Below, piece after piece: positions 42,478 through 64,000 of a stretch of DNA of 64,000 nt. This stretch comes from Candidatus Omnitrophota bacterium (GTDB lineage: Bacteria > Omnitrophota > Gorgyraeia > Ghiorseimicrobiales > Ghiorseimicrobiaceae). The notes under the pieces were generated by a model. It searched no databases and was not told the origin of the DNA. It saw nothing but the letters and a program-made list of their open reading frames with translations. The first letter of the stretch is position 1. Every line of letters begins with the position of its first letter. The position numbers were made by a program, and so were the translations under genes. The stretch lies in NCBI GenBank assembly GCA_030681595.1, contig JAUXSB010000056.1, positions 10,009-74,008 of the forward strand, written 5' to 3'.

Positions 42478-43146
42478 CTATTTTAGATAAAAATACGCGC
42501 CGGGAATTAAGGAAAAAATTTGCGCGGATTTAATGAGCAGAAAGACAATTACACCGGCGGTCAAACCAAAAATATGCGCAAGCGCCGGCAGAAAAAATAT
42601 ACTTAATATCAGGATAAACCCCGCTACGGTAAGCACGGTTACTAACGGCACGATGACTAAATTTGCTAAAATGGTTACGGGAGAAATAATCTTAAAATAG
42701 TAGATTATCAATAAAAATGTGCCTACCCACGCCGCCAGCGATACAGAAAAAGATTTAACTGCAAAATTCTTAAAACGCAGGATATTCTCTATCTTCGGTG
42801 AAAGATACACTATTGATAAAACGCTAATAAAAGATAGCTGGAATCCTATCTCTTCTAATTGCAATGGATTAAAGCTAAGAATAATCAAAGCGGCAAAAGA
42901 AAGAGAGTTATAGATATTTACTTCCCTCTCCAGCAATAACCCTATTAAAAGAACCGAACCCATAATCACCGCCCTTACCACTGACGGCTGTGCTCCGGTG
43001 ATAAAATTATAAAATATGAGCGCTATAAGTGCTAAAACATAACGCGGTTTTCTCGGGATACGTAGAATTTTTAAAAATACAAGCAAAATGAAAGCGGTTA
43101 TCGCGATATTCATACCGCTTATAGCTAAAATATGGGTCTTGCCGAG
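42478..43146 (-). pseudogene. comEC: ComEC/Rec2 competence-domain fragment, interrupted at its 5' side by the serine-recombinase element
   Basis: Competence-domain motifs (GAQPSVVRAVIMGSVLL). Upstream of the track Met the same frame reads LGKTHILAISG, matching the ComEC HILAISGLH motif, back to a stop at 43147..43149 inside the recombinase 3' end. The N-terminal region of about 200 aa is absent here. Confidence 0.6.
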
Positions 43147-44726
43147 TCAAAGTAGGATAAAAATTCCTGCTCTGAAGGTGAGGGAATCCGGGGAACGAAA
43201 CAGTCAATATCAATTATCCCGCTGACATTAACCTTTACTGAAGTATTCAAAAGTTTCAATGCCTGTTTCTTTGCCTCATAATTAAACTGCCTGAACTCTT
43301 TTTTTATTTTCTCAATAAAATCAACCGCATGCTTCACTTCAGCTTTCTTGTCGCTTTCATTCAGGCTTAATCTTAAATCCTGCCTTGTCCTTTCAAGATT
43401 TTCTCTTGTTTTTCTCAATGAATCAATCTGCTCTTTCAACTGCTCAATTGTAATGATGCTCTGCCTGTAAGCCTCAAGTATTCTCTGCTCTTCTTTTGTC
43501 AGGCTTTCCTGCATTAAAGAAATCCTCGCAATCTCTTTCTGAGCTGTCTCCCTGCTCATTGACTTGACTTCTTCCCTGTTCTTAATCGCATGCTCTATAA
43601 GGTAAGGATTCTGGAATATTTTCTCAACTTGATTCCAGACTGCATCTTCAAGTTTTCCTGCCTGAACGTACTTTAACCTGCATTTAACAAGCTTCTCAAA
43701 TTTATTTTTGACAAAATGAGTGCACCTGTAATACATCTTGAAATAAGGCCCGTATTTCCTGCCGTTCTTTTCCTGAAACTGCTTGTCAGCTGTTCCTGCT
43801 ATTGTATTGCCGCAGTCCCCGCATTTAACTAATCCCTGCAAAAGATAATGATATTTTGCATTTCTTTCAGAATAATTTCTTCTGTTGTTAAGATATTCCT
43901 GCGCTTTCAAAAAAGCTTCCTCTGAAATCATTTGAGGCACCTTTACCTCAATCCATTCTTCAACAGGTTTCAAACCGCCTGTTTTTGAATCATGCTTGTT
44001 CGCATGCCACTTTCCTATATATATGGTATCTTTCAAAATATCATGGACAACATCTTCCCTCATCAAATGCCCTTCTTTTGTCTTGTAACCCAAAGTACGC
44101 AATTTTCTTGTTACCTTTATAAGAGAAGAATCCGGCTGATTGTAAAGCTCATAGATCAACTTAACAACTTCTGCCTCTTTCTCATTTATCTTAATCTCTT
44201 TTGTTTCCTTGTGATAGATATAGCCGAATCTTGTTGGAGAGGATCCGGAATAATACCCTTCTCTCGCCCTTCTCAGCCTCCCATCCCTTGAACGCTGCAA
44301 AAATGTATTTCTCTCAAGCTCTGCAATCGACCCAAATAATGAAAGCACAAATTTGCCTAAATAATTGGAAGTGTCAAAGGGCTCTGTTATTGAACGGATG
44401 CTTACGCCGAATCTCTGAAGTTCATCAACGGTATTAAGCAAGTTCTTGTTGTTCCTGAAAAATCTGTCAACCCTGTAAACAAGAATCAGCTGCAACTTAT
44501 CCTGCCTTGCGTCTTCCATCAGCCTTTGAAACTGAGGCCTTTCAAAACTCGTTCCGGAATAGCCGTCATCAACGTATTCATCATGAACAATGTATTTATT
44601 ATCAAAGGCATGCTTTCTCAGCAATTCAAGCTGTGAGGCAAGGGAAAAATTCTCCTTCTGCTCTTCTGTTGAGACTCTTGCATACAAGGCAACCTTTATT
44701 ATCTTATTGCCGTTATTATTGTTCAT
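43125..44726 (-). mobile_element. Large serine recombinase (integrase) of an integrative element
   Basis: N-terminal resolvase domain with the catalytic Ser (VALYARVSTEEQ), recombinase domain, Cys-rich zinc ribbon (CGDCGNT ... YYRCTH) and a long coiled coil. 533 aa. Confidence 0.85.
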
Positions 44727-44730
44727 AACG

Positions 44731-45582
44731 CTATCCCTTTTTGGATAATTCCTTCAGCCATTCTTCCCTGTATTTATACTCCCTGTTTAATGCCTCTTTT
44801 CTTCTAATAACAATGGATTCGGCTATTTTTACTGCCTTATCAATTGCGGAGACGAAAGAACTTGGCTCATAAAAAACTCTTTTTACAAAAGAAAAGTCTA
44901 TGGGATAACAAGCCTGCAACCATGTTGCGCCACCTTTTATATTCTTTTGCTGAAGAATAATCGTAACGAGCCTGTTTCTTGTGCAAATGTTTAATTCATC
45001 TATATGCCCCGAAGGGTAGGAATTTTCACAGACAACGAATTTAGCAAGGTTTCCTAATAAATTCATCTTCTCCTCAATAGACTGTTCCTCAATGTCTTGG
45101 TAATCTTTCAACAGAATTCCCTCATAGCCAAATAGTCTCAAGCGCCCTTTTATAATATAAAGTGCATCTAATTTTTTCTTATAATCCCCTATAATCAATA
45201 CACATTTACGCTTTGATTGTCTTATCATCATATAAAGATGTGAAAAATCTTTCAAATAACAAACCAAATTGTCAACTTTTCTAAGAAAATCTGATCCAAG
45301 CACGAGTGGTTGTTTTAACCCTGCATAGGTGGCAAAATCAGAATTAAATTTTTTCCTTTTTGAAATGACTTTAATAGTTGCAATGTATGCCAAACTTATT
45401 CTCTCCGGCTCGATTCTCGAGACACGGTGTAAATCTTCTTTTCTGTATCCTAATAACTTAAGAAGACTGAAGCTTATGGTTCCAACTTTAATGTTTGTAT
45501 CTACTGGCGCAGTGATATTAAGGCTTTTTGAGGGACCCATTAATTTTATATTGTACTTTAAAGGATAATTTTCTCTGTCCAT
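44731..45582 (-). CDS. Hypothetical protein (element)
   Basis: 283-aa ORF tightly packed (4-nt gap) with the recombinase. No family recognised. Confidence 0.4.
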   Translation of the reverse strand: MDRENYPLKYNIKLMGPSKSLNITAPVDTNIKVGTISFSLLKLLGYRKEDLHRVSRIEPERISLAYIATIKVISKRKKFNSDFATYAGLKQPLVLGSDFLRKVDNLVCYLKDFSHLYMMIRQSKRKCVLIIGDYKKKLDALYIIKGRLRLFGYEGILLKDYQDIEEQSIEEKMNLLGNLAKFVVCENSYPSGHIDELNICTRNRLVTIILQQKNIKGGATWLQACYPIDFSFVKRVFYEPSSFVSAIDKAVKIAESIVIRRKEALNREYKYREEWLKELSKKG

Positions 45583-45616
45583 ATACTTTTTCCTTCGTTA
45601 AACCCCACCAAAGAAT

Positions 45617-45988
45617 TCAGAATTTTTTCCTATTATAAATATGAACATTACATCTATTTACATTCAAATTAAGTATATTATACCAACTTCTTTCATCATA
45701 ATCTTTTCTCAAAGGTATTTTCATCTCTACGGAAAGTTTCTCTAGGGCTTTCTTGTTTCGCGTCAATATCTCAAAAACCGGCTTACCATCAAAGTTAACA
45801 TTTCTATCATAAGTCATCTCTACAATGTCGATATTATGACTTGATAGAAATTTCTCCACTTCCTTGACTAAATCAGAGTCTTTTGCCATATCAGATAAAA
45901 AAGCCTGATCTCTTATAAATTTTTCCATTATATTCATCACTGCCTGCCTGTTATTTTTTTCAGCTTCCTTAAATCCTCTTCTGTCCAA
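45617..45988 (-). CDS. Hypothetical protein (element)
   Basis: 123-aa ORF. Confidence 0.35.
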   Translation of the reverse strand: MDRRGFKEAEKNNRQAVMNIMEKFIRDQAFLSDMAKDSDLVKEVEKFLSSHNIDIVEMTYDRNVNFDGKPVFEILTRNKKALEKLSVEMKIPLRKDYDERSWYNILNLNVNRCNVHIYNRKKF

Positions 45989-46200
45989 TACCTGTATTTG
46001 CTCATGAGATCTCTTTTAGCCTTAGGCACCTTGCCAAGCTTCTCCCAATTATAATAAGTCCTTCTTGTAATGCCCAATTCTTTTTCAATATCTTCAATCA
46101 GGTATCTCTTTTTCATATTCAATACTTTATCATAGTTTTCCTTTATTGTCAAGATTATTCTTATCGTTCTCTTCATTCTTCTCAGCAAGCTCAATCGCAT
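45937..46200 (-). CDS. Excisionase/MerR-like HTH protein (candidate recombination directionality factor)
   Basis: YLIEDIEKELGITRRTYYNWEKLGKVP is an HTH_17/Xis-AlpA type helix-turn-helix. Likely start at the internal Met near 46116. Confidence 0.45.
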   Translation of the reverse strand: MRLSLLRRMKRTIRIILTIKENYDKVLNMKKRYLIEDIEKELGITRRTYYNWEKLGKVPKAKRDLMSKYRYWTEEDLRKLKKITGRQ

Positions 46201-46486
46201 GAATAATCAAATTAATTATATCCCTTAACGCAATAGGATCGTCTTTAAGATGAATTTTTAATCTGGGAATAAGAATCTGATTCTTTTTAGGGGATAATTC
46301 AACAAATTCTTTAAAAATAAACTCTTTGTCCTCCTCAGAAAAATCCTTGCTCTCAGCCCATTCCTCAAACAGAGAAAGAAAATCCCTGCCATGGAACTTT
46401 CCTGCCCTTATCAGAAATTTCTCCGCCTGTTCTCTGTGAAAGTTTTTCTTATCCATGAATGGTATAAAGTTTTCGGGGAAAGTCAT
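46130..46486 (-). CDS. Hypothetical protein (element)
   Basis: 118-aa ORF. Confidence 0.3.
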   Translation of the reverse strand: MTFPENFIPFMDKKNFHREQAEKFLIRAGKFHGRDFLSLFEEWAESKDFSEEDKEFIFKEFVELSPKKNQILIPRLKIHLKDDPIALRDIINLIIHAIELAEKNEENDKNNLDNKGKL

Positions 46487-46667
46487 CCGTCAGCCTGATC
46501 CTGTAGCCCATTTTTTCCGCATACTTTACTGCAACATATGCCTCTGGCTCTGACACCATGGCAAAAAGGCACAAATCCCGGAAAGCAATGGCTTTCTTGG
46601 GAGAACTGGCCTGCATCAACAGGGCAGCCGCGGTCTCAATCTTTTCCTGTCTCTCATTTCTTTTCAT
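46449..46667 (-). CDS. Hypothetical small protein (element)
   Basis: 72-aa ORF. Confidence 0.3.
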   Translation of the reverse strand: MKRNERQEKIETAAALLMQASSPKKAIAFRDLCLFAMVSEPEAYVAVKYAEKMGYRIRLTDDFPRKLYTIHG

Positions 46668-46985
46668 TTATCTTTCCCTGCGGTTCCGCCCTCTGAAGAT
46701 TTTGTTATCCCAATGATCATGCAGTTCATGCTCTGTCAATTTCGTGAGAAACGGATGAATCTCCCCGGCACCAAAACAATCCTCGCAGGACTTCCTGGGG
46801 TTAAACCCTGGAAATGTCCTTTTGATTATCCCCAAATCATCTTTATCATAACGAAGGAGATGAAAATAACTTTTTCCTGTGCCTTCGCAGCATTCGCACT
46901 TTTCCGGATTAAACATATCATTAAACATCTTGATCCTCCTCCTTTTCCGGCTTGCCTTTATCTTCTTTTGGCTTTCCAAATTCAT
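46668..46985 (-). CDS. Small protein with two DnaJ-type CxxCxGxG zinc-finger motifs
   Basis: CECCEGTGKS and CEDCFGAGEI, with a very basic C-terminus. Confidence 0.4.
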   Translation of the reverse strand: MNLESQKKIKASRKRRRIKMFNDMFNPEKCECCEGTGKSYFHLLRYDKDDLGIIKRTFPGFNPRKSCEDCFGAGEIHPFLTKLTEHELHDHWDNKIFRGRNRRER

Positions 46986-47526
46986 AAGCTGTCATTGCTA
47001 CAAACAAGATAAACTCAACTGCGTAAACATAGCAGAACTGCGCGATTCTCCCTGAAGCCGCAGCATGCGTTGCAGTTATTATCAAATTGAAGGTAACTAG
47101 AACACAGCACGCAATAAAAATCCCCAGTCTTGCCCTGTAATTTAAATTCCCATGCCTTAAAGTGATAAACAGCATCTTTGAGGCAAAAACCGCAATTAAA
47201 ATCAAGGCCTGGCCTGCCCTGAACTCATTGAAAGGCAGAAGGCAGAACAGCGAGTTAAAAAAGCTGAATTTCCATGACACAAGGGCTATTGGCAGAGAGA
47301 ACAGCCACAAGGCAGTCATCAATAGCAAAGAAACAGGCCATCCGGCAAAGCTGTGAAAAAAGAAATTCATGCCCTTGAAAATTATGCTTAAGGAGACAGC
47401 CGAAGAGAAAACCGCAAGAGGCATAATAAAATATGGCAGCAGGGTATCAAACACAAAAAGCAATAAAGGATTCCTCTTCGGCTTAAAGTTTTCATCCAGC
47501 TCAATATCCTCAATGGCTTCGTCCAT
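46921..47526 (-). CDS. Integral membrane hypothetical protein (element)
   Basis: 201 aa with 4 to 5 hydrophobic helices. Confidence 0.4.
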   Translation of the reverse strand: MDEAIEDIELDENFKPKRNPLLLFVFDTLLPYFIMPLAVFSSAVSLSIIFKGMNFFFHSFAGWPVSLLLMTALWLFSLPIALVSWKFSFFNSLFCLLPFNEFRAGQALILIAVFASKMLFITLRHGNLNYRARLGIFIACCVLVTFNLIITATHAAASGRIAQFCYVYAVEFILFVAMTAYEFGKPKEDKGKPEKEEDQDV

Positions 47527-47538
47527 GATTCTGCCTTT

Positions 47539-48168
47539 CTATTCCCATCTTCCAAACTCAACATACAGATTATTGAACTGCACAACTAATGCAGGATCAT
47601 TGATGGCTGCATCCATAATGCCTGCCACGATTGTAAATGGCAGCGCAAATATGCATCCTGCAAATGCAATAGCATTCTCTGACATCGCCTTCATCTCGCT
47701 GTCAATTATCTCCCGGGCATGGCTTTCCATGGGAAAGGCAATCCAGATGCCATCATACTTAACCCTATGCTGCTTTAACACCGCGAGCTTCCTGAACATT
47801 TCTGAGGGAATTTTATCCTGTTCTGAATAATCAGCAATTCTCACGAGAGCCCATTTGAAATCACTGCCCTTAACAACAAACAGATTTTCATTCTCCCTTA
47901 ATACATGAAAGCAAAACGGTTTTGCCTCGAGCCCGGTTTTCTCTAACCCTTTGATTATCTCCCTTCCTGCCTTAAGATGATTCTCTGAACTGCTTAATAT
48001 CCTTGGCTGTCTTGAATCACTCTTAATAAAACTGATTCTTTTTGTTCTGCGTATCCTGCCCGGAATTTCCCCTCTCTGGATTTTTTCCGGCAGAAGAATT
48101 CTCCCTGAAAGTAAATTCTCAATTCCATCCCTTTTTAACAACCTTTCATTCACAATCAGATTTTCCAT
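47539..48168 (-). CDS. Hypothetical protein (element)
   Basis: 209-aa ORF, 2 nt from the ATPase gene. Confidence 0.35.
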   Translation of the reverse strand: MENLIVNERLLKRDGIENLLSGRILLPEKIQRGEIPGRIRRTKRISFIKSDSRQPRILSSSENHLKAGREIIKGLEKTGLEAKPFCFHVLRENENLFVVKGSDFKWALVRIADYSEQDKIPSEMFRKLAVLKQHRVKYDGIWIAFPMESHAREIIDSEMKAMSENAIAFAGCIFALPFTIVAGIMDAAINDPALVVQFNNLYVEFGRWE

Positions 48169-48169
48169 T

Positions 48170-50122
48170 TCATTCCTCCTGGTTTTTGTTCCGGTTAATC
48201 AAATCCCGCAAATCTTTTTTCAAAATCTCAGAAAGCAGCAGCACTGTTGTTCTGTTTCTCATTTCTTCTGGAATTTCCGTAATAATCTGCATCACCTCCT
48301 CTTTGACTTTTTTATCCCTACATGCAATAATAATAAAATCAGCCCTTGCAATACCTATGTCCTTCTCAATGTTTGCCTTTTCATGCAGAGAACTCATCGC
48401 AACCTCTATTGCTATAAGCATGCTTTCATGCTCAACTGCAACGTCAATAAACTTGCCAAACTTGTTAAGCTCAATCTCAGGCTTGTATTCCTTGAAATGC
48501 TCTACAACTAAATGCTGCCATACAAGATGCTCATAGCCTGCACCCTTTCCATAAAATTTCTTTTCCTCAATGCTTAACAGCTTGTAAGCCTGCTCAAGCA
48601 GAACGGGAAACTTGCTTACGCCCTTTCCCTTAACAATTTCAATGATTTTTATCATCTCCGCGCCTTCAAGCTTTTTTGCTGTTTTCGTTCCCCTGCAAGC
48701 TGAGAATCCTGCAATATCATGAATCTCTGTAAGTGTTTTTCTGTACTGGTTGAGGTAAACAGCCATGAGAAATTCCTTCTCATCATTGCTGATTAAAGGC
48801 TTTTCTTCCTTAATGTCCTCCCTGATTCTTGGCACAGGCGCGGAGAAATCCTTTATTATTCCCTCATTGTTTTCTGCCAGCTCTTCTTTGCTCATCGGCT
48901 CTGGAAAATCTGCCTCATAAATAAATGCCACGAATGGCCTTGCAATTCCTCCAAGCTCCACTATGGCTTCATGCTTTTCCCTGTTAAGGTTGCATAAATG
49001 CTGTTTCTGCTCTTTCTCTGTCAGGCCCATATGCTTCTCCATTGCATTCCTGTCAATGCCGGAAAAGGACAACATCATAATCTTGTTTGCCATGTTTGAA
49101 AGAACCGCAGGGCTTAATTCTGCAGGCGACTGCGAGCATAAAATCATATGTATAACCCCTTTTCTTATATTTGCAATAATGTCTGATATAAGCGTTAATT
49201 CCATGCTTTTCTGCAATAACAAATTTGCATCATCAAGGACAACAACCCGCATCCTGTCTGTCTCGCTTGAATAAAGGTGCAGAAGCAATGAATTGACAAT
49301 GAATTTCTGCTCTGAGAGCGTTAATTCCGAGATTTTAAAAATCGCGCTGCTTTTTACGATGTCATCCTCATGCCCTTTCACGCAGTCAAACGTCTTTCCA
49401 AGAGAACTATTAATCAGGCCTCCAAGCCGGTTCAATATACTTTCCTGGTATCTTGCAGTCCTGCTTAATCCCGGATGTTTTCTTGCCCTGATAAAATAAT
49501 ACAAATCATAAAGATTGGGCTCAGGATTCTTTCTTTTCAGCTCTCTTATTGCCTCAAGAAGATATGCCTCACTGCCCTCATATAAAACAAAGGAATCATT
49601 AAAAACAGAGACAAAAACTTCTGGCTTCAGGAAATGCAGCGGATTTATCTGCATCTTCCCGTTGAAATCATCATAAAAAATGTCAGGAAAAACTTTCATC
49701 ATGCTTGTTACCTCATCGGATTTTGCGAAAATCCATGCCTTATGGCCCTGCTCCAATGCTCCCCTGCACAGAATCATATAGGTAAATGTCTTGCCTGTGT
49801 TGGACGAGCCTATGATAAAGGTATGCGGGCTTAATATGGGCCATCCCACATCTTTGCCGGCTTCTGTCAAAGCAAACCTTATCAGGCTGTCAACGTCATC
49901 CGGAACATTAAAAGGCGAGCATGTCAGCTGCATCCTGATTATTTCAGGTGCAAGCTCGTCCAGGCATTCCTTGAACAATCTCTGGTTGCCCGGCTCTGAA
50001 AGTGAATCAAGGCACATTGCCATTCTCTTCCTGTCAAGCATGCCTTTCTTCTTCAGGAGCTCGAAAAGCTCTAAAGGATTCCTGGGAAGAATTCCTTCTA
50101 TTCCCTTCATTGATTCTTCCAT
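48170..50122 (-). CDS. FtsK/HerA-superfamily P-loop ATPase fused to a C-terminal winged-helix plus Hjc-like nuclease module
   Basis: Walker A IIGSSNTGKTF and Walker B VVVLDDANLL about 190 aa apart (FtsK/HerA/TraB-like spacing). C-terminal 170 aa: wHTH, then GYEHLVWQHLVVEHF ... FIDVAV ... IAIEVA, following the E / hhD / (I/V)E(V) pattern of Hjc-type PD-(D/E)xK nucleases with the Lys replaced. The real start may be the Met at about 50041. Confidence 0.6.
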   Translation of the reverse strand: MEESMKGIEGILPRNPLELFELLKKKGMLDRKRMAMCLDSLSEPGNQRLFKECLDELAPEIIRMQLTCSPFNVPDDVDSLIRFALTEAGKDVGWPILSPHTFIIGSSNTGKTFTYMILCRGALEQGHKAWIFAKSDEVTSMMKVFPDIFYDDFNGKMQINPLHFLKPEVFVSVFNDSFVLYEGSEAYLLEAIRELKRKNPEPNLYDLYYFIRARKHPGLSRTARYQESILNRLGGLINSSLGKTFDCVKGHEDDIVKSSAIFKISELTLSEQKFIVNSLLLHLYSSETDRMRVVVLDDANLLLQKSMELTLISDIIANIRKGVIHMILCSQSPAELSPAVLSNMANKIMMLSFSGIDRNAMEKHMGLTEKEQKQHLCNLNREKHEAIVELGGIARPFVAFIYEADFPEPMSKEELAENNEGIIKDFSAPVPRIREDIKEEKPLISNDEKEFLMAVYLNQYRKTLTEIHDIAGFSACRGTKTAKKLEGAEMIKIIEIVKGKGVSKFPVLLEQAYKLLSIEEKKFYGKGAGYEHLVWQHLVVEHFKEYKPEIELNKFGKFIDVAVEHESMLIAIEVAMSSLHEKANIEKDIGIARADFIIIACRDKKVKEEVMQIITEIPEEMRNRTTVLLLSEILKKDLRDLINRNKNQEE

Positions 50123-50624
50123 TACTTACCCTTTCATGAATTTGCAGATTGTACCCCTTGTTATTTGCAAGCGTCATAAGCCATGTATCTGTTCTATCTC
50201 TACCTGTAAACACTGTTCTCGCTGAAATCAGCAGCAGCATGGGCAAATGATGGCTCCTGCATGCATAAGCGCTGTTTACTGCCCTTGCGCAATCCCTGCA
50301 TCCGGGAACAGTGCAAAGTTTCCTGAAACACCCGGGATAAATACAGACAAGAATGTATCTCTGCGCGCATTGCAGGCATATCAGATGCCCTGAATTGCAG
50401 ACATGCCCTATGCCAAGGCTTGCAGAATGGCCGCAGGGCAGGACAATCTCCTTTTCATTGTGAACCATAATTATGCCCTGTTCAGGCACGTAGATTTTGC
50501 CTTTCTCCACCTCTGAGATTATCCCCTTGCCCGGGTCAAATTTTGAGATGCTCTTGTGAATCCTTACTGTCTTTATTCCGCTCGGTCCGTCAATTATAAT
50601 CTTGTTAATGCTTTCTTCGTTCAT
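50034..50624 (-). CDS. Cys/His-rich hypothetical protein (putative zinc-binding)
   Basis: LPCGHSASLGIGHVCNSGHLICLQCAQRYILVCIYPGCFRKLCTVPGCRDCARAVNSAYACRSHH carries about 14 Cys and 6 His within 70 aa. Confidence 0.35.
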   Translation of the reverse strand: MNEESINKIIIDGPSGIKTVRIHKSISKFDPGKGIISEVEKGKIYVPEQGIIMVHNEKEIVLPCGHSASLGIGHVCNSGHLICLQCAQRYILVCIYPGCFRKLCTVPGCRDCARAVNSAYACRSHHLPMLLLISARTVFTGRDRTDTWLMTLANNKGYNLQIHERVSNGRINEGNRRNSSQESFRAFRAPEEERHA

Positions 50625-50636
50625 TTCTCACCTCTC

Positions 50637-55426: not shown

Positions 55427-55541
55427 CTGCCCCTTCCTTCTCTTTCAAGTAAAATGACAGAATACATTATTGACTTTGCGAGTGTTATCCTTGAGGCTTC
55501 CAGCAAAGAAGAAGCTTACAAGATGGCAGCGGAGTTAATCA

Positions 55542-55898
55542 GTGAAGGCGAAATTGGGGTTGATCAGATTGAGCCAAATTAAAATGACGGATGACTTTTG
55601 GAAGGATGCGGAGATAATCGATGTTTACACAGATGGGCAGGCTGTTGATGACGGGGTTTTAATTCCAGTGAAATTTGAAAACATCACAAGGATAACAAGG
55701 GCTGTATTTGATGGCTTTGACAAGAGGGGCTTTGACGCACCGGGATTTTACAAGTTCATGACTGAGGCGTCTAAAGAGCTTGAAAGCCAGCAGCGTATAA
55801 AATACGACTGGTTTTATTCTGTTTTAATTGAAGGCAGAAGATACTACCTTGTTGACAATGGCAATGGATTTACTCTGATGAAACCTGAAGATTACTGA
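55542..55898 (+). CDS. Hypothetical protein (plus strand)
   Basis: 118-aa ORF. The real start is probably the internal Met (MTDDFW). Confidence 0.3.
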   Translation: MKAKLGLIRLSQIKMTDDFWKDAEIIDVYTDGQAVDDGVLIPVKFENITRITRAVFDGFDKRGFDAPGFYKFMTEASKELESQQRIKYDWFYSVLIEGRRYYLVDNGNGFTLMKPEDY

Positions 55899-55899
55899 A

Positions 55900-56640
55900 A
55901 GCGGGCTTATTTGATTTTTTACTTATTCTTTATTTTTTATACATCTTGTGGCAAGATTTATATTGATTGATGGATATACTAATTTAAGGATAAACCCTTT
56001 GAATTATATAGAAACCCATAAAAGGGGATTTCGCTAACGGCTAAATGCTCAACCCCAATTTAAGGCTTTCTATCTTATTTATATTAACGACGACGCTGTG
56101 TGCCCCAGCTCTGATTGCCGAGGGCTGATGCCATCTCTGGCAATCGAGGGGGCACTTCGTGCCTCCCTACTACGGCTTAACGTACTACCTTTTTATGCTA
56201 CTTTATTTAGATGCTACTCTCTACTGCTCTGCTAATACTACTCTGCCCCCGTTTTTTACTCACTACTGCTTCTACCTCTAGTACCGCTACATTCACGTAC
56301 CGCTACCTCTTATTCTACCTTTACTATCTCTGACGCTTCTTTTTTATGTTGCTAACGCTACTACTCCACTTACACTTGGACTATTTCTTCTACTTTTATT
56401 TGTTTACTTTACGTAACCTTTTGTCTTACTTTGACTTATTTTTCTTTGACTTGTTCTTGGAGCTTTGACTTGTTCTTGGAGATTTGACTTGTTCTTTTTG
56501 TTTCTATTGGTTTTATTTGTTTCTTTGATTTTACTTATTGATTTATAGTGTGTTGGATTTATTTCTATATATGGGATGGGGATAATAGAAGCGAAGAAAC
56601 AGAAACAAAAGCAAAAGCACGTTCATAAGTCCGGCTTTTT
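55900..56640. repeat. 740-bp gene-free, strongly strand-skewed region (pyrimidine-rich top strand; about 20 GTAG/AGTAG/GGTAG motifs on the bottom strand) with a 54-nt imperfect palindrome (56101..56154) and 19-nt tandem repeats (56427..56500)
   Basis: No ORF of 60 aa or more on either strand. The top strand has almost no G between about 56160 and 56540. CTTTGACTTGTTCTTGGAG occurs about 3.5 times in tandem. Lies immediately 3' of the tyrosine integrase gene. Confidence 0.7.
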
Positions 56641-57832
56641 ATCTGGGATGAGAAATCTTATCCTTTGGTTTAATCAACTTGGATGCCTCATAGGATTTTC
56701 TCCTGAACATGGCGGCTAACTGGTTGAGCTGGTTCCATATTTTTTTCTCGCCCTGCGATAGCCTGTCTATCTCTTTCTCCAGCCTTGATTTATCCGCTTC
56801 AACTAGCAAATCTTCTTTTCTTATATCGCCCGTCAGGCCCAAAAACTCGGTGTAGTAGTTCAGCATGGTAAAATCTGTCCAGCCACCTCTCTGCCTTAGC
56901 GCATCAAGGCTTATTTTCCCGGATTTCTGGGCTATTTGCCTCAGATGGCAGGCCCCTGAGTGCCTGAAATCATAAAGAGTCATCTTTGAATAAAGCTCAC
57001 CTCTCGGATGCGATAATTTATCCCCGAATATCTGCTTGGCCACCTTCTGCAATTTATCTGTAAAGACAGGATAGCTGAATGAGAAAATGTAATCATTGGA
57101 TTCCAGGCCTTTTCTTTTGATATACTTTAATACGGCTTCCCCGCAATAGAGAAAATTGCCTGTTCTCCCTATTGTCTTGCTTATCTCCTGGGAAATATTG
57201 AAATATACCTCCCCCTCCTTTACAAAGATGTCTTTTGCCTTCATGTTCATCAATTCAGTAGGGGCTCTGATTAAGGTGTCAAAGATGAATAGCAATACAA
57301 CCTGCTCATCCTCGCTAAAGTAAGGAAGCATGGAATCTAACTGATCTTTGGTTATATAGACAAACTTTGGCTTTTCTCTTGATGTGTCCAGGTCTTCTGT
57401 AATGTCCGGAATTTGTATCCCTTTTTTTCTGTTTACAGTCATATGCCAATGCCAAAAGGCCTTAAAGATTTTGACATAATCAGCAACGGATTTATAGGCC
57501 TCTCCAACATTGGTTTTGATCTTTCCCGTTCTCATGTCATTAAAAAGGCAGACTAGATCCTTTTCATCCACTTTTGTTATGTCTTTTGCGTCTCTTTTTT
57601 CAAGCATTCCCATTATAAAGGCAATCCTGTATCTCAGGCTATTGAGCCTCTGATAGCTCCTAGCGCCTTTCTTTGCGCCTCTTGGAATGTTTACGCCTTG
57701 TTCCATATCAAAGACATATGCTGTTAAAATCTCAGAGTTTTTGTTGCTCAATCCATCTATTCCTGATTTAGAGATCTCTTCCTTCCAGTCTTTATATCTG
57801 TCTGCGTGATGGTAAATATCCAATTTAACCAT
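56639..57832 (-). mobile_element. Tyrosine recombinase / phage-type integrase
   Basis: C-terminal catalytic region with R..H..R..Y spacing (LYDFRHSGACHLRQ ... LRQRGGWTDFTMLNYY). Confidence 0.8.
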
Positions 57833-58062
57833 GCAGAAAGATAAGCGCAGCTACTTTATAAGGATTTCGATGCTCCCTCCAGTCCCGTCGGGAGCATTGA
57901 GAGAGCATCGAATAAGTTAACTATAGACAAACCGAAAGTTGACGGTGTGTAGGGAATCATCTTTTACGCGATTCCTACTTTGCTCTATAAATAAGCAAAT
58001 CAAATAACTTGATACAAGAATAAATATCTTTCAATATGTTCTCCTTCTCCTCTAAGCTGAAC

Positions 58063-58293
58063 TCAGTTTTGTAAGCCAAAGGAGTCGAGGCTTCCGGCTG
58101 ATACTGTTCTATTGTCTGCTCTTTCACGTTCTTCTCGTAATGTGTTTCCATCTCCCTCAGCCTCATGGAGAAACTCATCTCTCCAAACACAATTAGGACA
58201 AATCCAATATTGCTCAACCCTGCCATTAACCAGCCGGCTGGTTAAAATGAGCCTGGATTCGTCCTGTTGATGACATAGCTTGCATTCTTTCAT
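58063..58293 (-). CDS. Small zinc-ribbon protein (CxxC ... CxxC)
   Basis: MKECKLCHQQ ... WICPNCVWRDEF. It overlaps the alternative ORF 57975..58226; which frame is used cannot be decided. Confidence 0.3.
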   Translation of the reverse strand: MKECKLCHQQDESRLILTSRLVNGRVEQYWICPNCVWRDEFLHEAEGDGNTLREERERADNRTVSAGSLDSFGLQN

Positions 58294-58505
58294 AAAGGCA
58301 GCATCAAAGATGCCTTTATTGCCTTTTTCAGCAAACTATATTAATGGCCCTAAAAGTCAATCCCCGTAATCAATGCCTTTTGGCATGGTGTGATAGTCAA
58401 ACTTGTATTCAATTACATGAGTCAGCTTCATGCCCAAGTCTTTCAACATCTTCTCTATGTTCAAAACCGCCTTCATTGCCTTTGTTTCAAGATTCTCCAT
58501 CATCT

Positions 58506-58904
58506 TCAGCCCTTTATCTGCTCTGCATTGAAAGCCGTACTTGCCTGCCTTTGCCTGGCAGATTCGATAACCTTCTCAAAGTATGCCACTGCCTTGAAGA
58601 AGGGCCTTTCGAATCCCGGCACTCTCACGATGATGCTCCTGCCATCTCTTGTGATGCCTATCTTCAGCTCATCTCTTTTTTCGCCCTGATACTGGTTTAG
58701 GTTTTCTTCCATTTTTGGTTTACCTCCTGTATTAATTACAGAGAGGTAACGCTTATATAGGTTTTCAGCAAAGAATATTAACGGGGGATTTTGGCTGAGG
58801 GATAGGGGATTTAAACTTTGTAAGCAAAGTGTGGCATGAAGTTTATTTGTTAGATAAAATAGATTTTGCAACTCTGAATAAAAATGCGATTGCGCGGGAA
58901 ACAT
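58506..58904 (-). CDS. Hypothetical protein
   Basis: ORF only. The real start may be the internal MEENLNQYQ. Confidence 0.3.
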   Translation of the reverse strand: MFPAQSHFYSELQNLFYLTNKLHATLCLQSLNPLSLSQNPPLIFFAENLYKRYLSVINTGGKPKMEENLNQYQGEKRDELKIGITRDGRSIIVRVPGFERPFFKAVAYFEKVIESARQRQASTAFNAEQIKG

Positions 58905-58940
58905 TAATATGATATTATTAATAAGTATTAAGGAGTCGAA

Positions 58941-59915
58941 ATGTCATGGTCAGAGAATTTATTTCTAAATGTACTTAAAGCTGCCGCTCCCACTGCATTT
59001 ATCTACGAAAAAGATTTTTCTCCCTTCGTAAAGGATATCACTTCTCTTTGTGAACAAAACAAAATCCCGTTAGATTGTATTCTAGTTGATTTTGATGGCA
59101 TAACTCTTTCTCCCAAAATAGCTGAAGTATTACTCAACGATAAACATAAAATTATTCTGTTTGGTCTGAAAGAAAATGTTTGGCATTTCCCTGAGCGACA
59201 GCAAGCCAAAAGTAAACTCAAAAAAAAGCTGATTTCTCTAGCATGTTATTACGACCGCATCACTGAAGAAGGAGATTATGATAATAGTATTATTAAAGCA
59301 TTGGCGAATGACTTAGCCTTAGCACGTCTATTCGAGAAAGGGAAAAAGGTAACCATAGCTAGTCCTAGCGGAACTAAAATTAAAGCGGAGATAGGGGAGA
59401 GGAGTTTTTTTGAAAACGGTGACTATAGCAAATGTGGGAGTGGCGGTGATTTCCCATCGGGAGAAGTCGGATTTGGGCCGAAAGAAAATAGCGTAAATGG
59501 TCTTATTGTCTTTGACCTGAAAATTCAACATATAGGCACAGTATCGAACTTAAAAGTAGAAGTTGAACAAGATAAGATAGTTACGATAGAAGGTGAAAAA
59601 AAGGAGGCCTACGAAAAGTTATTAAAGAAGCACGACATATTAAATCTTATTAGTGAAATATCAATCGGGATTAATCCTTTTATCAGAATCAAAAATGAAC
59701 CTTCAGTATTGGAAGAAAAGAAATTAGGAACGGTTCATTTCGGACATGGAGCTAATTTGTCTTATGGTAAAAGAAAAGGGTTGCACTTCGATGCGGTTAT
59801 AAGGGATCCTACCTTCACAATAGAAGATAAAATAATCCTTAAGAGGGGAGGAATCAACAAAATCATTCTTTCGGAAGAGACAAAATCGCTCCTAGAAAAG
59901 GTTGACGAAAGTTGA
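58941..59915 (+). CDS. Hypothetical protein, possibly metallopeptidase-like (M29 aminopeptidase-like His/Asp cluster)
   Basis: LGTVHFGHGANLSYGKRKGLHFDAVIRD. Weak similarity only. Confidence 0.3.
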   Translation: MSWSENLFLNVLKAAAPTAFIYEKDFSPFVKDITSLCEQNKIPLDCILVDFDGITLSPKIAEVLLNDKHKIILFGLKENVWHFPERQQAKSKLKKKLISLACYYDRITEEGDYDNSIIKALANDLALARLFEKGKKVTIASPSGTKIKAEIGERSFFENGDYSKCGSGGDFPSGEVGFGPKENSVNGLIVFDLKIQHIGTVSNLKVEVEQDKIVTIEGEKKEAYEKLLKKHDILNLISEISIGINPFIRIKNEPSVLEEKKLGTVHFGHGANLSYGKRKGLHFDAVIRDPTFTIEDKIILKRGGINKIILSEETKSLLEKVDES

Positions 59916-59951
59916 AATATATGCTATACTTATAATCTATCATTAGATAAC

Positions 59952-60731
59952 ATGGAAAATCCAATCAAATTCAAGAATAATAGCAACTTGATCCTTGCAG
60001 GCATACTGAATAGTCCTGTTGAATCTAGTAACGCAGGCATCATATTGTTGCATGGTTTTGCAGGAAACAAAGAGGAGAATGGGTTATTCCCATATGCTGC
60101 AAATATCCTCAGTGCCAATGGTTATCATACATTAAGATTTGACTTTGCTGGGGTAGGTGAAAGCCAAGGCGATTATTCAAAAAGCACTTTAAATAGTCAA
60201 AAAGAAGACTTTATTTCTTCTCTGGATTTTTTTGTTAAAAAGTGTCATTTAAGCAGAGTTGGAGTAGTTGGTTTTAGTCTTGGAGCAACAATCGCCTTGC
60301 TTGGTTATGAGAAAAAAATAAAAGCAATGGCGTTATGGAGCCCCGCTTTGTTTCCCAAGAAAGATATGTTCCCTCGCTATCAGACAAATGAATTCAAAAG
60401 ACATCTAAAAGGATATGGCTATATAAATAAAGGGGGGCTAAAAGTTGGGAGTGAAATAATAGATGATTTGGGTAAATGCGATCTGATTCCTTTTATAAGA
60501 AGAGTGGAGTGCGAAGTATTATTGATACACGGAGATAGAGACGAAAGAATAAATTATAAGAGTACCTTAAGAGCAGAAAGAAAATTTCTTAAAGCACAGA
60601 CTTATATAATAAAAAATTCTGGACATTCATACAAAGAAAGTTATCTTGTGAAAGAAGAAGTTTTAAATAAGACTATAGAACTTTTCAATAGAAATATTCT
60701 GCATAAAGTACCTGCCAAGAATTTGGTATAA
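59952..60731 (+). CDS. Alpha/beta hydrolase (dienelactone hydrolase/esterase type)
   Basis: Nucleophile elbow VVGFSLGATIAL (G-x-S-x-G), an N-terminal ILLHGFAG oxyanion region, and a C-terminal HGDRDERI with the His of the triad. Confidence 0.65.
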   Translation: MENPIKFKNNSNLILAGILNSPVESSNAGIILLHGFAGNKEENGLFPYAANILSANGYHTLRFDFAGVGESQGDYSKSTLNSQKEDFISSLDFFVKKCHLSRVGVVGFSLGATIALLGYEKKIKAMALWSPALFPKKDMFPRYQTNEFKRHLKGYGYINKGGLKVGSEIIDDLGKCDLIPFIRRVECEVLLIHGDRDERINYKSTLRAERKFLKAQTYIIKNSGHSYKESYLVKEEVLNKTIELFNRNILHKVPAKNLV

Positions 60732-60918
60732 CTCCTTTTAATCTAATTAGTTAAAATAAAAGAGGGCAGTTTTAAGTCATGCCCGGGACTTTTTAGTGGT
60801 AGTGTTAGCATTAGCTTTTCCCCGCTGATGTCCTTATCCATTCATAGACAAGTGAGAAGGTGTTTTCATCCTTCGTAGGGTCTGGTTTTAAGTCCAGCAA
60901 CTTCTTTCCTCCTTTCTG

Positions 60919-61161
60919 TTAAACCTGATATACCTCAAGCACAATGCTTTGTAGCTCGCTTTGCATTGACTTGTCCACCAATGTAACGGTCGGATACCAC
61001 TTGCTGTCCTTGCCTTGTGATTTTGGCATCGTTACAAATAATCCATTGGTGCCCTCAATTATTCTCACTCCTTTCACAAGAACTTGGTTTATCACAACAT
61101 CGGCAAACGCCTTCAATGACGAGCCGTTTTCAACCCGATGCAACCTCGCAACCTCTATCAT
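60919..61161 (-). CDS. spoVG: SpoVG-family protein
   Basis: IEVARLHRVENGSSLKAFADVVINQVLVKGVRIIEGTNGLFVTMPKSQ is collinear with B. subtilis SpoVG ([49 protein letters not shown]). Confidence 0.75.
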   Translation of the reverse strand: MIEVARLHRVENGSSLKAFADVVINQVLVKGVRIIEGTNGLFVTMPKSQGKDSKWYPTVTLVDKSMQSELQSIVLEVYQV

Positions 61162-61501
61162 TTTTTACCTCCTCTCCCCATCTCTGCGCTTCCCTGATTT
61201 TCTTAACTTCGCTTGCTTTACAAGGATTCCAATGCAAATCCCTGTCAACCTCAACAAAGCTCACCTTGAGACTGCTTAACTCTTCAAGGCTGAAATAGCC
61301 CCACTCTGCCATTTCAAGATCATTATTGAGTATCGCGAACCCAAAGAAACATTTTTCCTCAGGTGAATACTCGCAGGCATACCAGTCACAGCCACCGATG
61401 AAAAAATGCATGTGAATCATCTTTTTCTTGAGATGCACTTCCTCACTTGAATAAAAAGCCGGCAGCTTTGCCATCTCTTCTTTTGTAGGCATGTTCCACA
61501 T
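61130..61501 (-). CDS. DUF2958-family protein (typical ICE/plasmid cargo)
   Basis: GGCDWYACEYSPEEKCFFGFAIL ... AEWGYFSLEEL matches the DUF2958 core pattern. Confidence 0.5.
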   Translation of the reverse strand: MWNMPTKEEMAKLPAFYSSEEVHLKKKMIHMHFFIGGCDWYACEYSPEEKCFFGFAILNNDLEMAEWGYFSLEELSSLKVSFVEVDRDLHWNPCKASEVKKIREAQRWGEEVKNDRGCEVASG

Positions 61502-61532
61502 GATTCAGCTCCTTTCTCTTTAACCTGTCTTT

Positions 61533-61778
61533 TTATTCGAGAATCAGATTTTTCCCTGCAATAAGAATCTCTCCCGGGCTCTTGAGCTTCCCGAGGATTT
61601 CCTTATTAACAAGCACTGCCAGCGGCTCGGTAACGTAATCCCCTTGCGTGCCGTTCAGGGCAGCAATAACCGCTGTATCTATACCCCCTAATTCCGTTGC
61701 AAGCAGCACAAAATTGCTGAACTGACCGCTTATTATGTGCCTGTATTTCTTTGTCTCTTCAGGGGTAATATCCCTCAT
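61533..61778 (-). CDS. Hypothetical small protein
   Basis: 81-aa ORF. Confidence 0.3.
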   Translation of the reverse strand: MRDITPEETKKYRHIISGQFSNFVLLATELGGIDTAVIAALNGTQGDYVTEPLAVLVNKEILGKLKSPGEILIAGKNLILE

Positions 61779-61791
61779 CCGTCATCTCCTT

Positions 61792-62034
61792 TCATTTTTC
61801 ATCGTTAATGTAGCAACCCTTACAGTCATCATTTTTGTCAGCAAGGCAGGCCTCGCAGATAATATCTCCTGCTACTGCCTTTAATGACTGCTTAATCAAT
61901 GATTCTGCAATCTCTGTCATTGGCTTTTTGTAAACCCTTTTCAGCCTGTAGATTGTTCTTACTGCCTTTTCACTCAATACTGGACTGTACAACTTTCTCC
62001 TCCTTTCCGCTGCAGAAGCTGCATTCGCACGCAC
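61792..62034 (-). CDS. Small Cys-rich protein (C-terminal CxxC ... CxGC)
   Basis: ICEACLADKNDDCKGCYINDEK. Likely start at the internal Met (MTEIAESL). Confidence 0.3.
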   Translation of the reverse strand: MRANAASAAERRRKLYSPVLSEKAVRTIYRLKRVYKKPMTEIAESLIKQSLKAVAGDIICEACLADKNDDCKGCYINDEK

Positions 62035-62111
62035 TCCAGCCGCAGCACGCGCACATCATGCAACCCCCAGCATGAATAATCTGAGAGCCACAATCCGGGC
62101 AAAATTCCATG
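61974..62111 (-). CDS. Unannotated 45-aa Cys-rich peptide MEFCPDCGSQIIHAGGCMMCACCGWSACECSFCSGKEEKVVQSSIE
   Basis: ATG at 62111..62109, TGA at 61976..61974. Nine Cys in 45 aa. Different frame from the track ORF 61974..62156, and below the track cutoff. Confidence 0.35.
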   Translation of the reverse strand, partial: HGILPGLWLSDYSCWGLHDVRVLRLECVRMQLLQRKGGESCTVQY

Positions 62112-62196
62112 ACAATCACCCCCTTCCTGAAAAATAAAAAGAGAGGGCAAAAACATCCCGTTAAAACCTTCGCGAGTAAAAACAGGAATGCCCCCT

Positions 62197-62820
62197 CTAT
62201 CTGCTTTTGTATTCAGAATAAAGAATTCCGTATCTTAATTCATTGTGCCATTTTCCATATCTGAATCTCGGCTCTCTTATTTTTCCTTCGAGCTTGAAGC
62301 CCGATTTTTCCAAAACTCTTCTTGAGGCAATATTTTCCTCAAATAAACCTGCGTAAATCTTATGGAGCTTGAGCCTTCTGAAACCAAACTCTATGAGCAA
62401 TTTGGCTGCCTCTGTCATAAACCCCTGTTCCCAATATCTCTTTCCCAGCCAATAGCCGATTTCTGCATTTCTGTTTTTGTAATCCAGCTTGAGCAGTGTT
62501 ATGACGCCTATGACTTTATTCTCTTTTTTCAGCATTATGCCAAAGGCGTATGCTTTCTTTTTTCTTGCATCGTAATGCGTTTTTCTTATAAATCTGGTGG
62601 CGCTATCTTTGAAGTACGGATGCGGAATGTTCAAAGTCCACCTGATAATCTCTCTATCCTTTACATTTTGATAAATGTCCTCGCTATCAGAAAATCTTAA
62701 TTTCCTAAGTGTTATTCTTTCCCCCGATATTTCTGATGTTGCCTTAATGTCATTACTTAAACTCATGCCCCCTCCTTTCCTTAACTGTTTAGAAATAAAA
62801 AAGAGCAACGCTATAAGCAA
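62197..62820 (-). CDS. GNAT-family N-acetyltransferase (RimJ/RimL-like)
   Basis: ITLRKLRFSDSEDIYQ ... RYWEQGFMTEAAKLLIEFGF ... HKIYAGLFEENIASRRVLEKSGF is the RimJ-type Acetyltransf_3 pattern. Confidence 0.7.
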   Translation of the reverse strand: MLIALLFFISKQLRKGGGMSLSNDIKATSEISGERITLRKLRFSDSEDIYQNVKDREIIRWTLNIPHPYFKDSATRFIRKTHYDARKKKAYAFGIMLKKENKVIGVITLLKLDYKNRNAEIGYWLGKRYWEQGFMTEAAKLLIEFGFRRLKLHKIYAGLFEENIASRRVLEKSGFKLEGKIREPRFRYGKWHNELRYGILYSEYKSR

Positions 62821-62977
62821 TTGCTCTTTCGCTAAAAGGCATAAAGATGCCTTATAAATAACTCCCCATCAAGAGAAGTTATTATTTTGTGTTAAAAATA
62901 CCTGGAATTTAAGTGGCGGGGTTTTAAATACCTTTTCAGCAAAGTATATTAATGGAAGATTTGGGGCTAATAAAGAA

Positions 62978-63919
62978 TTAATCTATTTCAAAATTCAAGA
63001 CAGAGGTTATCTTTATCTTGGCATTAATCAGTTTATTTTCAGCCAGGCATTGCCGGATTTTTTCTTCTGCTTCTTTGCTTGTCGCAACGCAGACAGTATT
63101 GTCAAACGCCTTTAAATCCCTTGCAATATTCCTGATGAAATCAGAGCTGCCTGTTTCTATCTCAATGGCTGTCTGCCTGCTTTTATTGAGGATGATAATA
63201 TCGGGCCTGCCGTTAATGTGCTCTTCAACGAGAATTTCAAACCCTTTATTTTTGTAATACTCGGCTATCCTGAATTTCCAGAATTTATGCTCTATGCCTT
63301 CTTTGTCATCCTTGACTTCATAACCCAAATCCCTCAGCAGGCCTTTTCCTTTTGGAGTTAATTCAAACAATGTTATCCAGCCTGAGTTAGTAATAATCCT
63401 TACCGGCTTGATAAAGCCATTTTCAATCAATGAGCTCCTGTGCCGGTTTCCTGTGCCCGGGCTTATGTTCATTCTCCTGTATCTCTGGGTTATCCCGGAA
63501 AGCTGATTTGTAAAAACGTCTATAAGAAGCCTTTCGGGAGGGGTATTCGCATATTCGCATCTTTCTCTAACCTTACTATTATCCCCCTGCGAATACCCCC
63601 TGTTTTCATCGCTTTTACCGTCGCTGGCAGGCTTGGAATACCCCCTCCCGTGCTCTTTAAGCCAATCATCAGTTATCTTGCCCTTTTCAACAGGCACGTA
63701 GAGGAACTGGGTAAGGCATGGATTTATTCTCTCCATTATTTTGACTATTCCCTGGCCTGTTTTGAGCATGTTCAAATATGCCTCATCATCTCTTGGCAGA
63801 AACATCGCCTTTCTTGCCGACTCTATGTCCTCCTGGTGCTGCAATGCAAGAAATATCAGGGTATGGGAATTACCAAGAACGTAAATCGGCAGAAGCGAGG
63901 GATGCTGCGTAATGCTCAC
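62978..63919 (-). CDS. Hypothetical protein whose C-terminal 170 aa is paralogous to the ATPase C-terminal wHTH plus Hjc-like nuclease module
   Basis: GIEHKFWKFRIAEYYK ... GRPDIIIL ... TAIEIETGSSDF aligns position-for-position with the ATPase C-terminus GYEHLVWQHLVVEHFK ... GKFIDVAV ... IAIEVAMSSLH. The preceding segment (GFIKPVRIITNSGWITLFELTPKGKGLL) aligns with the ATPase wHTH. The N-terminus may extend beyond 63919. Confidence 0.5.
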   Translation of the reverse strand: MSITQHPSLLPIYVLGNSHTLIFLALQHQEDIESARKAMFLPRDDEAYLNMLKTGQGIVKIMERINPCLTQFLYVPVEKGKITDDWLKEHGRGYSKPASDGKSDENRGYSQGDNSKVRERCEYANTPPERLLIDVFTNQLSGITQRYRRMNISPGTGNRHRSSLIENGFIKPVRIITNSGWITLFELTPKGKGLLRDLGYEVKDDKEGIEHKFWKFRIAEYYKNKGFEILVEEHINGRPDIIILNKSRQTAIEIETGSSDFIRNIARDLKAFDNTVCVATSKEAEEKIRQCLAENKLINAKIKITSVLNFEID

Positions 63920-64000
63920 GATTCCCTGCCCGAAGCTTCTTATCTCACGATAAACATTCTCAAGGCTGTCTATCCTGTCCTTCTCATATTTTATCTTCTG

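Follow-up and report, generated by a model that had tools for sequence, protein, structure and literature searches.

In a 64,000-nucleotide stretch of Candidatus Omnitrophota DNA (contig JAUXSB010000056.1, positions 10,009 to 74,008; hereafter the window), the gene for a large serine recombinase (LSR) runs directly into one half of the competence gene comEC, and the question this locus raises is what has broken comEC at that point. We consider it very probable that the LSR inserted an integrative mobile element, at least 20.9 kb long, into the comEC coding sequence of the host chromosome, and that the junction seen in the window is its right-hand one (attR). The first-pass annotation of this DNA had proposed a comEC gene split by an LSR-bearing integrative element, and that proposal is upheld by the same junctions in relatives, by examples of attB, attP, attL and attR, and by an abrupt change in DNA identity at a single histidine codon between the window and one of these relatives, L031. 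Here and below, L-numbers denote comparison loci or contigs and P-numbers denote proteins.

The LSR open reading frame (ORF; 43125..44726, minus strand) is intact and encodes 533 amino acids (aa). Pfam searches assigned its catalytic N-terminus to Resolvase (PF00239, residues 12-158, E 5.9e-36) and its DNA-binding region to Recombinase (PF07508, residues 182-281, E 2e-14) and Zn_ribbon_recom (PF13408, residues 295-367, E 2.5e-12). A Recombinase domain followed by a zinc ribbon is the C-terminal DNA-binding region that separates large from small serine recombinases. The protein is identical to MDP1854201.1 and to P0156. The last two codons of the gene and its stop codon are comEC DNA read in the +1 frame.

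On the other side of the junction a 211-aa comEC ORF occupies 42478..43113 (minus strand), and its ATG lies 11 nt from the LSR stop, as the first-pass annotation had stated. Upstream of this ATG the comEC frame stays open through LGKTHILAISGM back to a stop (TGA 43147-43149) within the LSR 3' end, and includes the LGKTHILAISG stretch to which the first pass had drawn attention. The resulting 222-aa stretch matches positions 21-245 of 270 of the Pfam Competence domain (PF03772, E 1e-50, 173 bits) over 222 codons with neither frameshift nor stop. As defined by the comparisons below, the comEC 3' half extends as an uninterrupted ORF on the minus strand from the His codon CAT (43132-43134) of the motif GT(A/V)H^ILAISG, in which a caret marks the break, to its stop (42478..43134). 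When eight Omnitrophota ComEC relatives were used in tblastn searches, every alignment in the window began at 43143 and ran downward, and no comEC 5' part, including the DUF4131 region, was found in the 64 kb. Because only the Competence domain is present and the DUF4131 part is absent from the window, the fragment represents half a comEC gene rather than a complete one. The first pass had named the reality of a missing N-terminal part as a point on which its case would turn; full-length Omnitrophota ComEC proteins of 420-465 aa do extend for ~190-250 residues before the break, so that roughly the N-terminal half is missing, not the third originally estimated. The closest uninterrupted relative of the fragment is the ComEC protein of L024 (P0002, 64% identity), and the closest public ComEC fragments are likewise from Candidatus Omnitrophota.

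The relatives were found by context look-ups and one scan of species-representative genomes, with L044 and L056 added by a metagenome pattern scan; L002 is the same contig as L008, and L004 the same contig as L011. In nine other assemblies among them, an orthologous LSR (54-92% identity) adjoins a comEC half that is interrupted at this same His codon, GT(A/V)H^IL. The LSR is followed directly by a comEC 3' half with this break in L002, L004, L005, L006, L031, L044 and L056. A ComEC N-terminal profile search revealed the mirror junction, in which a comEC 5' half ending in GT(A/V)H gives way to foreign DNA, in P0127 (L025-L028), P0130, P0136 (L029) and P0121 (L010); in L025 this 5' half sits after a comEA-like gene, as expected for a com operon. 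Uninterrupted attB sites occur in the close relatives L024, L021 and L003, and unintegrated attP forms in L007 and L030. A degenerate P-arm pattern matched metagenome contigs 37 times, of which three are related by their flanks (L044 and L056 with attR, L049 with an attP-like site) and the others look like chance.

The four site types can be aligned at the break. The attB of the uninterrupted gene in L021 reads ..GGGACTGTACAT^ATTTTGGTAGTCAGCGG, the attP of L007 ..CGCCAAGACCCAT^GTCCTACCAGCTCAGTAAACG, the attR of L006 ..CGCCAAGACCCAT^ATCCTGGTAGTCAGCGG and the attL of L025 ..GGTACCGTGCAT^GTCCTACCAGCTCAGTAAACG. The attL thus consists of the B arm and a P' arm of the L007 type, and the attR of the P arm and B'; hybrid arms of this kind in putative attL and attR sites are the signature of serine-integrase integration. 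The four sites of the L006, L007, L025 and L021 set have only CAT plus 5-7 nt in common, and when the attB sites of L021 and L024, the attP sites of L007 and L030, the attL of L025 and the attR sites of L006, the window and L031 are compared, the common part is only CAT plus 2-7 nt, with the arms recombined as expected. A core of CAT alone was considered and ruled out, as the attP of L030 has CATATCCTGG in common with attB; this overlap places the core in general only within a region of 5-10 nt (CAT plus up to 7 nt).

For the window itself, comparison with L031 narrows the crossover further. The LSR modules of the two loci are 92% identical in DNA, whereas host genes of the pair share 63-70%. 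In gapless 50-nt bins the element side keeps an identity of 0.88-1.0 as far as CAT, beyond which the comEC side gives 0.5-0.6, and the drop from ~0.94 to 0.58 falls exactly at the His codon; by the third base past CAT the two sequences have diverged, each matching the comEC codons of its own host. This switch, together with the att set from L006, L007, L025 and L021, places the window crossover within the minus-strand sequence CATAT (43130..43134), somewhere within which the central dinucleotide would lie, and so tightens the interval of about 43125..43160 proposed in the first pass. The adjoining att P arm (43135..43165, minus strand) lies inside the last LSR codons (..FLSYFDSARP) and resembles comEC. 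Its sequence TTTGACTCGGCAAGACCCAT is conserved in the window, L004, L005, L006, L007, L030 and L031, the uninterrupted comEC having ACNGGNACNGYNCAT at this position, and it is because the P arm imitates comEC imperfectly that the window frame reads GKTH and not GT(A/V)H. Across the loci, 5' halves end in GGN ACN GYN CAT and 3' halves start with CAT ATT YTN, in the frame found in uninterrupted genes; precise excision, as judged in silico from this frame compatibility, would rejoin the comEC halves in frame. A search allowing three mismatches found no L007-type P' arm in the window. The first-pass size of at least 21 kb therefore stands only as something we infer, because the window contains neither a comEC 5' half nor a P'-arm-like sequence.

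The position of the P arm within coding sequence also explains a feature of the recombinases themselves: the stop codon of each integrated LSR comes from comEC, so that tails differ among hosts, near-identical LSRs ending in IF in the window and in IYWWSAVLMWA in L031, each followed by a stop. A protein search with the L007 LSR returned 69 clusters at ≥44% identity, 56 of which measure 520-580 aa. Most of the tails in these clusters are HIL(A/V)xSG read in the +1 frame (RPIF, RPISW or RPIYWWSAVLMWA before a stop, or ..ICWRSAGSISR), which indicates that those LSRs are also integrated in comEC. Dozens of related elements appear, from these tails, to be aimed at the same comEC codon. LSR and ComEC identities to the window are discordant (73% versus 42% for L004, 57% versus 65% for L002), and this discordance, together with the near-identical module of the window and L031 in clearly different hosts, indicates that the elements move between lineages. 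The family thus comprises a large and previously undescribed set of serine integrases from an uncultivated phylum, with at least 60 protein clusters at 90% identity, whose members all appear to target one codon of a conserved membrane-protein motif and for which natural attB, attP, attL and attR sites are at hand. Such defined att site pairs are raw material for integrase-based genome engineering. A full-text literature search returned no paper linking Omnitrophota with serine recombinases.

Within the sub-lineage formed by L009 (3' end) and L010 (9989-12359), the LSR (54-56% identity) has the opposite orientation at the same comEC His codon and converges on the 5' half, which in L010 ends ..VRTGTAH^SLTAH. 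Insertion in this orientation implies an inverted core in the attP of these elements.

We propose the following mechanism. By comparative sequence, the LSR recognises a short site with the His codon of GT(A/V)H^IL(A/V)xSG at its centre, a motif that provides a conserved attB in many hosts, and strand exchange would take place at a central dinucleotide within CATAT. A circular element would have been integrated into comEC in this way, separating the 5' half, expected beyond 64 kb beside comEA, from the 3' half that remains in the window, and with comEC split the DNA-uptake channel should be lost. Since the att arm of the element lies inside the last LSR codons, the integrated LSR would come to end on a stop from the comEC +1 frame, as it does in the window. 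The conserved module consists of a MerR/Xis-like helix-turn-helix (HTH) gene and the LSR, the remaining genes being exchangeable cargo. Precise excision by the LSR, with the comEC frame restored, could follow if a directionality factor were present, a role for which the HTH protein is the obvious candidate.

Our default reading of this arrangement, following published hypotheses, is that a selfish element would have inserted itself into a conserved, dispensable gene and would at the same time block its own removal by transformation. Competence has, to our knowledge, never been shown in Omnitrophota, and we therefore infer the fitness argument here in its entirety. Mobile elements in other competence genes (comM islands, comFA, comGA and comK prophages) have been proposed to block chromosomal curing by transformation (PMC4774983, PMC12637031, PMC12378983); as with those insertions, the target is a conserved dispensable competence gene and the element is predicted to benefit from stopped DNA uptake. 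Serine-recombinase elements inside comEC itself are known from S. pyogenes (Phi1207.3/Tn1207.3, Phi10394.4), with Tn1207.1/mega residing in S. pneumoniae celB (PMC4260502, PMC12378983). The Omnitrophota element resembles them in its site-specific insertion within comEC by a serine-family recombinase and in the loss, predicted here, of the DNA-uptake channel. The streptococcal elements, found in Bacillota, are either prophages or defective transposons. They carry three resolvase-type genes, with antibiotic resistance as cargo, and cross over at a defined dinucleotide, a GA target (PMC4260502, PMC12378983); in contrast, the Omnitrophota element has a single 533-aa LSR, a His-codon GT(A/V)H^IL target and no phage genes that we could find, and belongs to a large family with interchangeable cargo. 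What is new is this large family in Omnitrophota, serine-recombinase elements in comEC being already known from streptococci, and with it the theme of mobile elements shutting down DNA uptake would extend to this phylum.

Could the interruption instead serve the host? LSRs are known to operate gene-splitting elements in B. subtilis (skin, with SpoIVCA, in sigK; SPbeta, with SprA/SprB, in spsM) and in Anabaena (the fdxN element, with XisF), and skin and SPbeta are precedents for a regulatory switch in which triggered excision, possibly on com operon transcription, would rebuild comEC and be followed perhaps by re-integration. A further precedent is the active lysogeny of the Listeria A118-like comK prophage, in which a gene of the competence system is the one interrupted (PMC7397523). 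The window element shares with all four an LSR gene at the element end, an interrupted coding sequence and, in silico, restoration of the frame on precise excision. Consistent with a switch, every comEC half seen, whether one of the six 3' halves or a 5' half, is an uninterrupted ORF, joining of attL and attR restores the frame, and integrated and attP forms both exist in nature; moreover, the comEC 5' half is directly followed, in like orientation, by a double ribbon-helix-helix (RHH) ORF that lacks a credible start codon ahead of its first RHH motif in L030 and L029 and that com-operon read-through could reach. Intact halves are, however, equally expected after a recent insertion, and uninterrupted comEC occurs in many relatives. 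An LSR module with 92% identity between hosts that differ by 30-37% in their own genes points to recent spread and not to long co-adaptation, and the cargo is completely variable, so that the element looks recently mobile, unlike the domesticated skin. Excision of skin, SPbeta, the comK prophage and the fdxN element has been shown experimentally and tied to sporulation, heterocyst formation or phagosome escape; for the window element it is predicted from sequence. We consider a host-used switch unlikely, and escape of the element from transformation-mediated deletion fits the variable cargo and recent spread better.

Less probable again is a dead remnant, that is, an old insertion whose comEC 5' half or far att site has been lost and whose comEC fragment and LSR are decaying. 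The unseen far end, an extra 1.2-kb insertion inside the HTH-LSR module of the window and the attP-like site without an LSR in L049 would all suit such a history. The LSR of the window, on the other hand, is full length with three domains and differs by only ~8% in DNA from the copy in another host, and the comEC 3' half remains open over its 222 codons with a 173-bit match to Pfam Competence. L029 (10001-20846) could itself be such a remnant: behind its comEC 5' half (..RTGTAQ^VLPTAS) and RHH ORF come housekeeping-like genes (ahpC, rrf2, Fe-S assembly, sulfite reductase, bolA), so that it either holds very large metabolic cargo or has lost the comEC 3' half along with the remainder of the element.

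What kind of element is it, then? By tblastn with all element ORFs, only a MerR/excisionase-like HTH gene of ~60 aa and the LSR are conserved across the elements, one more ORF is shared with the closest relatives, and the other cargo differs. The HTH gene (45937..46200, minus strand, with a probable start at Met29, 46116; MerR_1 E 1.5e-4) encodes a protein 52-73% identical to that of the gene just upstream of the LSR in L002, L005, L006, L007, L009 and L010, which bears out the Xis-like gene of the first-pass annotation. Serine integrases need a separate recombination directionality factor for excision, and this HTH protein is a candidate for that factor or for a regulator. The further ORF, of 118 aa (46130..46486, minus strand), is an orphan common only to the closest elements L005 (51% by tblastn) and L031 (86% nucleotide identity over 45931-46456). 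Two more orphan ORFs, of 283 and 123 aa (44731..45988, minus strand), are inserted between the HTH gene and the LSR and are absent from the L031 module, the blastn alignment of window and L031 stopping at 44717 and restarting at 45931; neither has a match in Pfam, PHROGs or PADLOC. A 650-aa P-loop ATPase of the HerA/DUF87 type (48170..50122, minus strand; PADLOC mad8 6.6e-18, HerA 2.6e-5) matches the DUF87 protein of L002 weakly (E 9e-5) and has no significant similarity to that of L025; with DUF87 genes also in L025 and L031, divergent DUF87-type ATPases recur among the related elements. A PADLOC scan of the element for defence systems returned nothing beyond the HerA/mad8-like matches to this ATPase. 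Among the relatives, Replic_Relax occurs in L007 and L030, a TraG/TrwB-like gene in L030 and a DUF87/TrwB-like ATPase in L025, and ThiF, restriction-modification and other defence-type genes also occur.

The first pass had likened the locus to serine-integrase prophages, and a temperate phage of the A118 or Phi1207.3 type inserted in comEC would account for the LSR and small HTH module and for the dense orphan-rich genes, which resemble prophage ends. The 650-aa ATPase weakly matches PHROG families resembling the terminase large subunit (E 7e-6), and the comEC elements known from streptococci are prophages (PMC4260502). When 20 element ORFs were searched against PHROGs, however, they gave only integrase and weak regulator and ATPase matches, with no capsid, portal, terminase, tail or lysis genes, although the unseen part of the element could hold such genes; the ATPase scores better as HerA/mad8, no relative of the window LSR was found among IMG/VR viral contigs, and the relatives carry Replic_Relax, TraG/TrwB-like, DUF87 and restriction-modification genes instead of phage genes. 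A prophage is thus highly improbable, and this part of the first-pass account is not supported. The lack of phage structural genes and the gene content of the relatives point to an integrating element of plasmid-like or mobilisable type, which is most likely what the window contains rather than a demonstrable prophage. An assembly or binning chimera joined through a shared short sequence, which might be entertained because metagenome assemblies often break near the junction (within ~1 kb of it, L003 begins, L009 ends and L004 is cut), is excluded, since the independent Logan assembly L001 (SRR13727519), whose contig lies inside the window, reproduces an identical 16.6-kb sequence across the junction and the same junction type occurs in at least seven other assemblies from different studies.

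Several observations weigh against an integrative element inserted by its LSR, or against parts of that account, and keep it short of certainty. The far junction and the comEC 5' half are not seen in the window, ~13.3 kb of the 77,358-nt source contig lying outside it, and both comEC halves were seen on one contig in no genome. The four att types were drawn from different genomes and samples rather than a single population. No relaxase, replication protein or coupling protein could be recognised in the window element, which has just the HerA-like ATPase and DUF2958. A 397-aa tyrosine recombinase (56639..57832, minus strand; Phage_integrase E 3e-6, phrog_1 integrase 4e-14) at 56.6 kb means that part of the 21 kb could be a second, nested element, and this gene is either cargo or the mark of such an element.

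The unintegrated forms suggest a further consequence of integration for the recombinase. In the attP contigs L007 (677 aa) and L030 (P0139) the LSR ORF continues past attP for 133 codons through two RHH motifs, and a corresponding open frame of 132-144 codons starts at the crossover in the attL contigs L025 and L029. Over the 26 linker codons before the first RHH motif, L007 and L030 give a ratio of non-synonymous to synonymous divergence (dN/dS) of ~0.22 in the LSR frame, as opposed to 0.7-1.1 in the other two, a value resting on small counts (8 synonymous and 7 non-synonymous differences). In more distant LSRs (28-35% identity) a C-terminal RHH domain is native to the protein. These sequences suggest a recombinase gene that extends across attP and from which integration removes an RHH extension. 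We tentatively advance the possibility that the excised circle encodes an LSR-RHH protein of ~675 aa, that integration into comEC trims it to ~533 aa and that the protein produced would reflect whether the element is integrated and could determine the direction of recombination or couple excision to the induction of competence. Once integrated, the RHH module would be promoterless, largely without a start codon and located directly downstream of the comEC 5' half, within reach of com-operon transcription only. The double-RHH module is a second candidate directionality factor. If this holds, integration would itself alter the recombinase, giving serine integrases a novel means of sensing their own state and of controlling direction. 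In the archaeal fusellovirus SSV1 the tyrosine integrase gene contains attP and is partitioned by integration, with loss of an essential part of the enzyme. The LSR-RHH proposal, if right, would be similar in that the recombinase ORF straddles attP and integration changes the protein made, and different in that the three LSR core domains stay intact and only the C-terminal double-RHH extension is detached. Against it, the RHH ORF of L049 has its own Shine-Dalgarno sequence AAGGAG and an ATG (codon 29) with no LSR upstream, and the far end of the window element lies outside the window.

The L049 locus (reverse complement, ~440-990) comprises an attP-like site (a P arm of ~40 nt, core and P' arm) followed by the double-RHH ORF, with a thermonuclease-like ORF upstream. 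It could be a rearranged remnant, or else a satellite that has no LSR and is served in trans by an integrase encoded elsewhere.

The rest of the element (46487..64000) runs off the window end and consists mostly of orphan genes, among which Pfam, PHROGs and PADLOC identify DUF2958, SpoVG, GNAT, alpha/beta hydrolase and M29-like proteins; a look-up of the last window ORF (62978..63919) gave no match. The first pass had described this side as dense, minus-strand and mostly orphan: the orphan character holds, but the strand is not uniform, with plus-strand genes right of the LSR at 52293-52709, 55130-55898 and 58941-60731. Just 3' of the tyrosine recombinase gene are three tandem 19-nt units (CTTTGACTTGTTCTTGGAG) at 56444-56500, possible binding sites or nested-element iterons, and no tRNA genes that might be targets of this recombinase occur in the window. 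A 42-nt direct repeat (58753-58794 and 62924-62965, 81% identical) flanks ~4.2 kb with the M29-like, hydrolase, SpoVG and DUF2958 genes, and a third copy of 23 nt lies at 58325-58347; these repeats could be operator sites or the ends of a sub-module. The cargo of L007 (12086-21427) and L025 (2199-11686) abounds in genes of restriction-modification and defence type, namely Dcm- and N6-type methylases and Vsr-like, HNH, GHKL ATPase and KAP NTPase genes, and the comEC site may be an entry point for defence islands in Omnitrophota.

In keeping with a junction between chromosome and element, the left flank of the window carries chromosomal housekeeping genes (gltB, pgi, amt, trehalose synthesis, bamD-lptE-holA-rpsT-murJ) and the right flank is orphan-rich. 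The bamD-lptE-holA-rpsT-murJ cluster (10152..6094, minus strand) lies 32 kb from the comEC 3' half, while in L004, L031, L003, L024 and L002 it follows comEC within 0.06-6 kb. The possibility that the region from 10 to 42 kb is a second island was ruled out by its housekeeping metabolism: the intervening 32 kb holds glutamate synthase, pgi, amt and trehalose synthesis genes and so represents a synteny difference. Directly 3' of the comEC fragment, on the host side, is a 173-aa sigma-70/GerE-like gene (41711-42232), and the cargo of the L031 element has a Sigma70_r4 gene.

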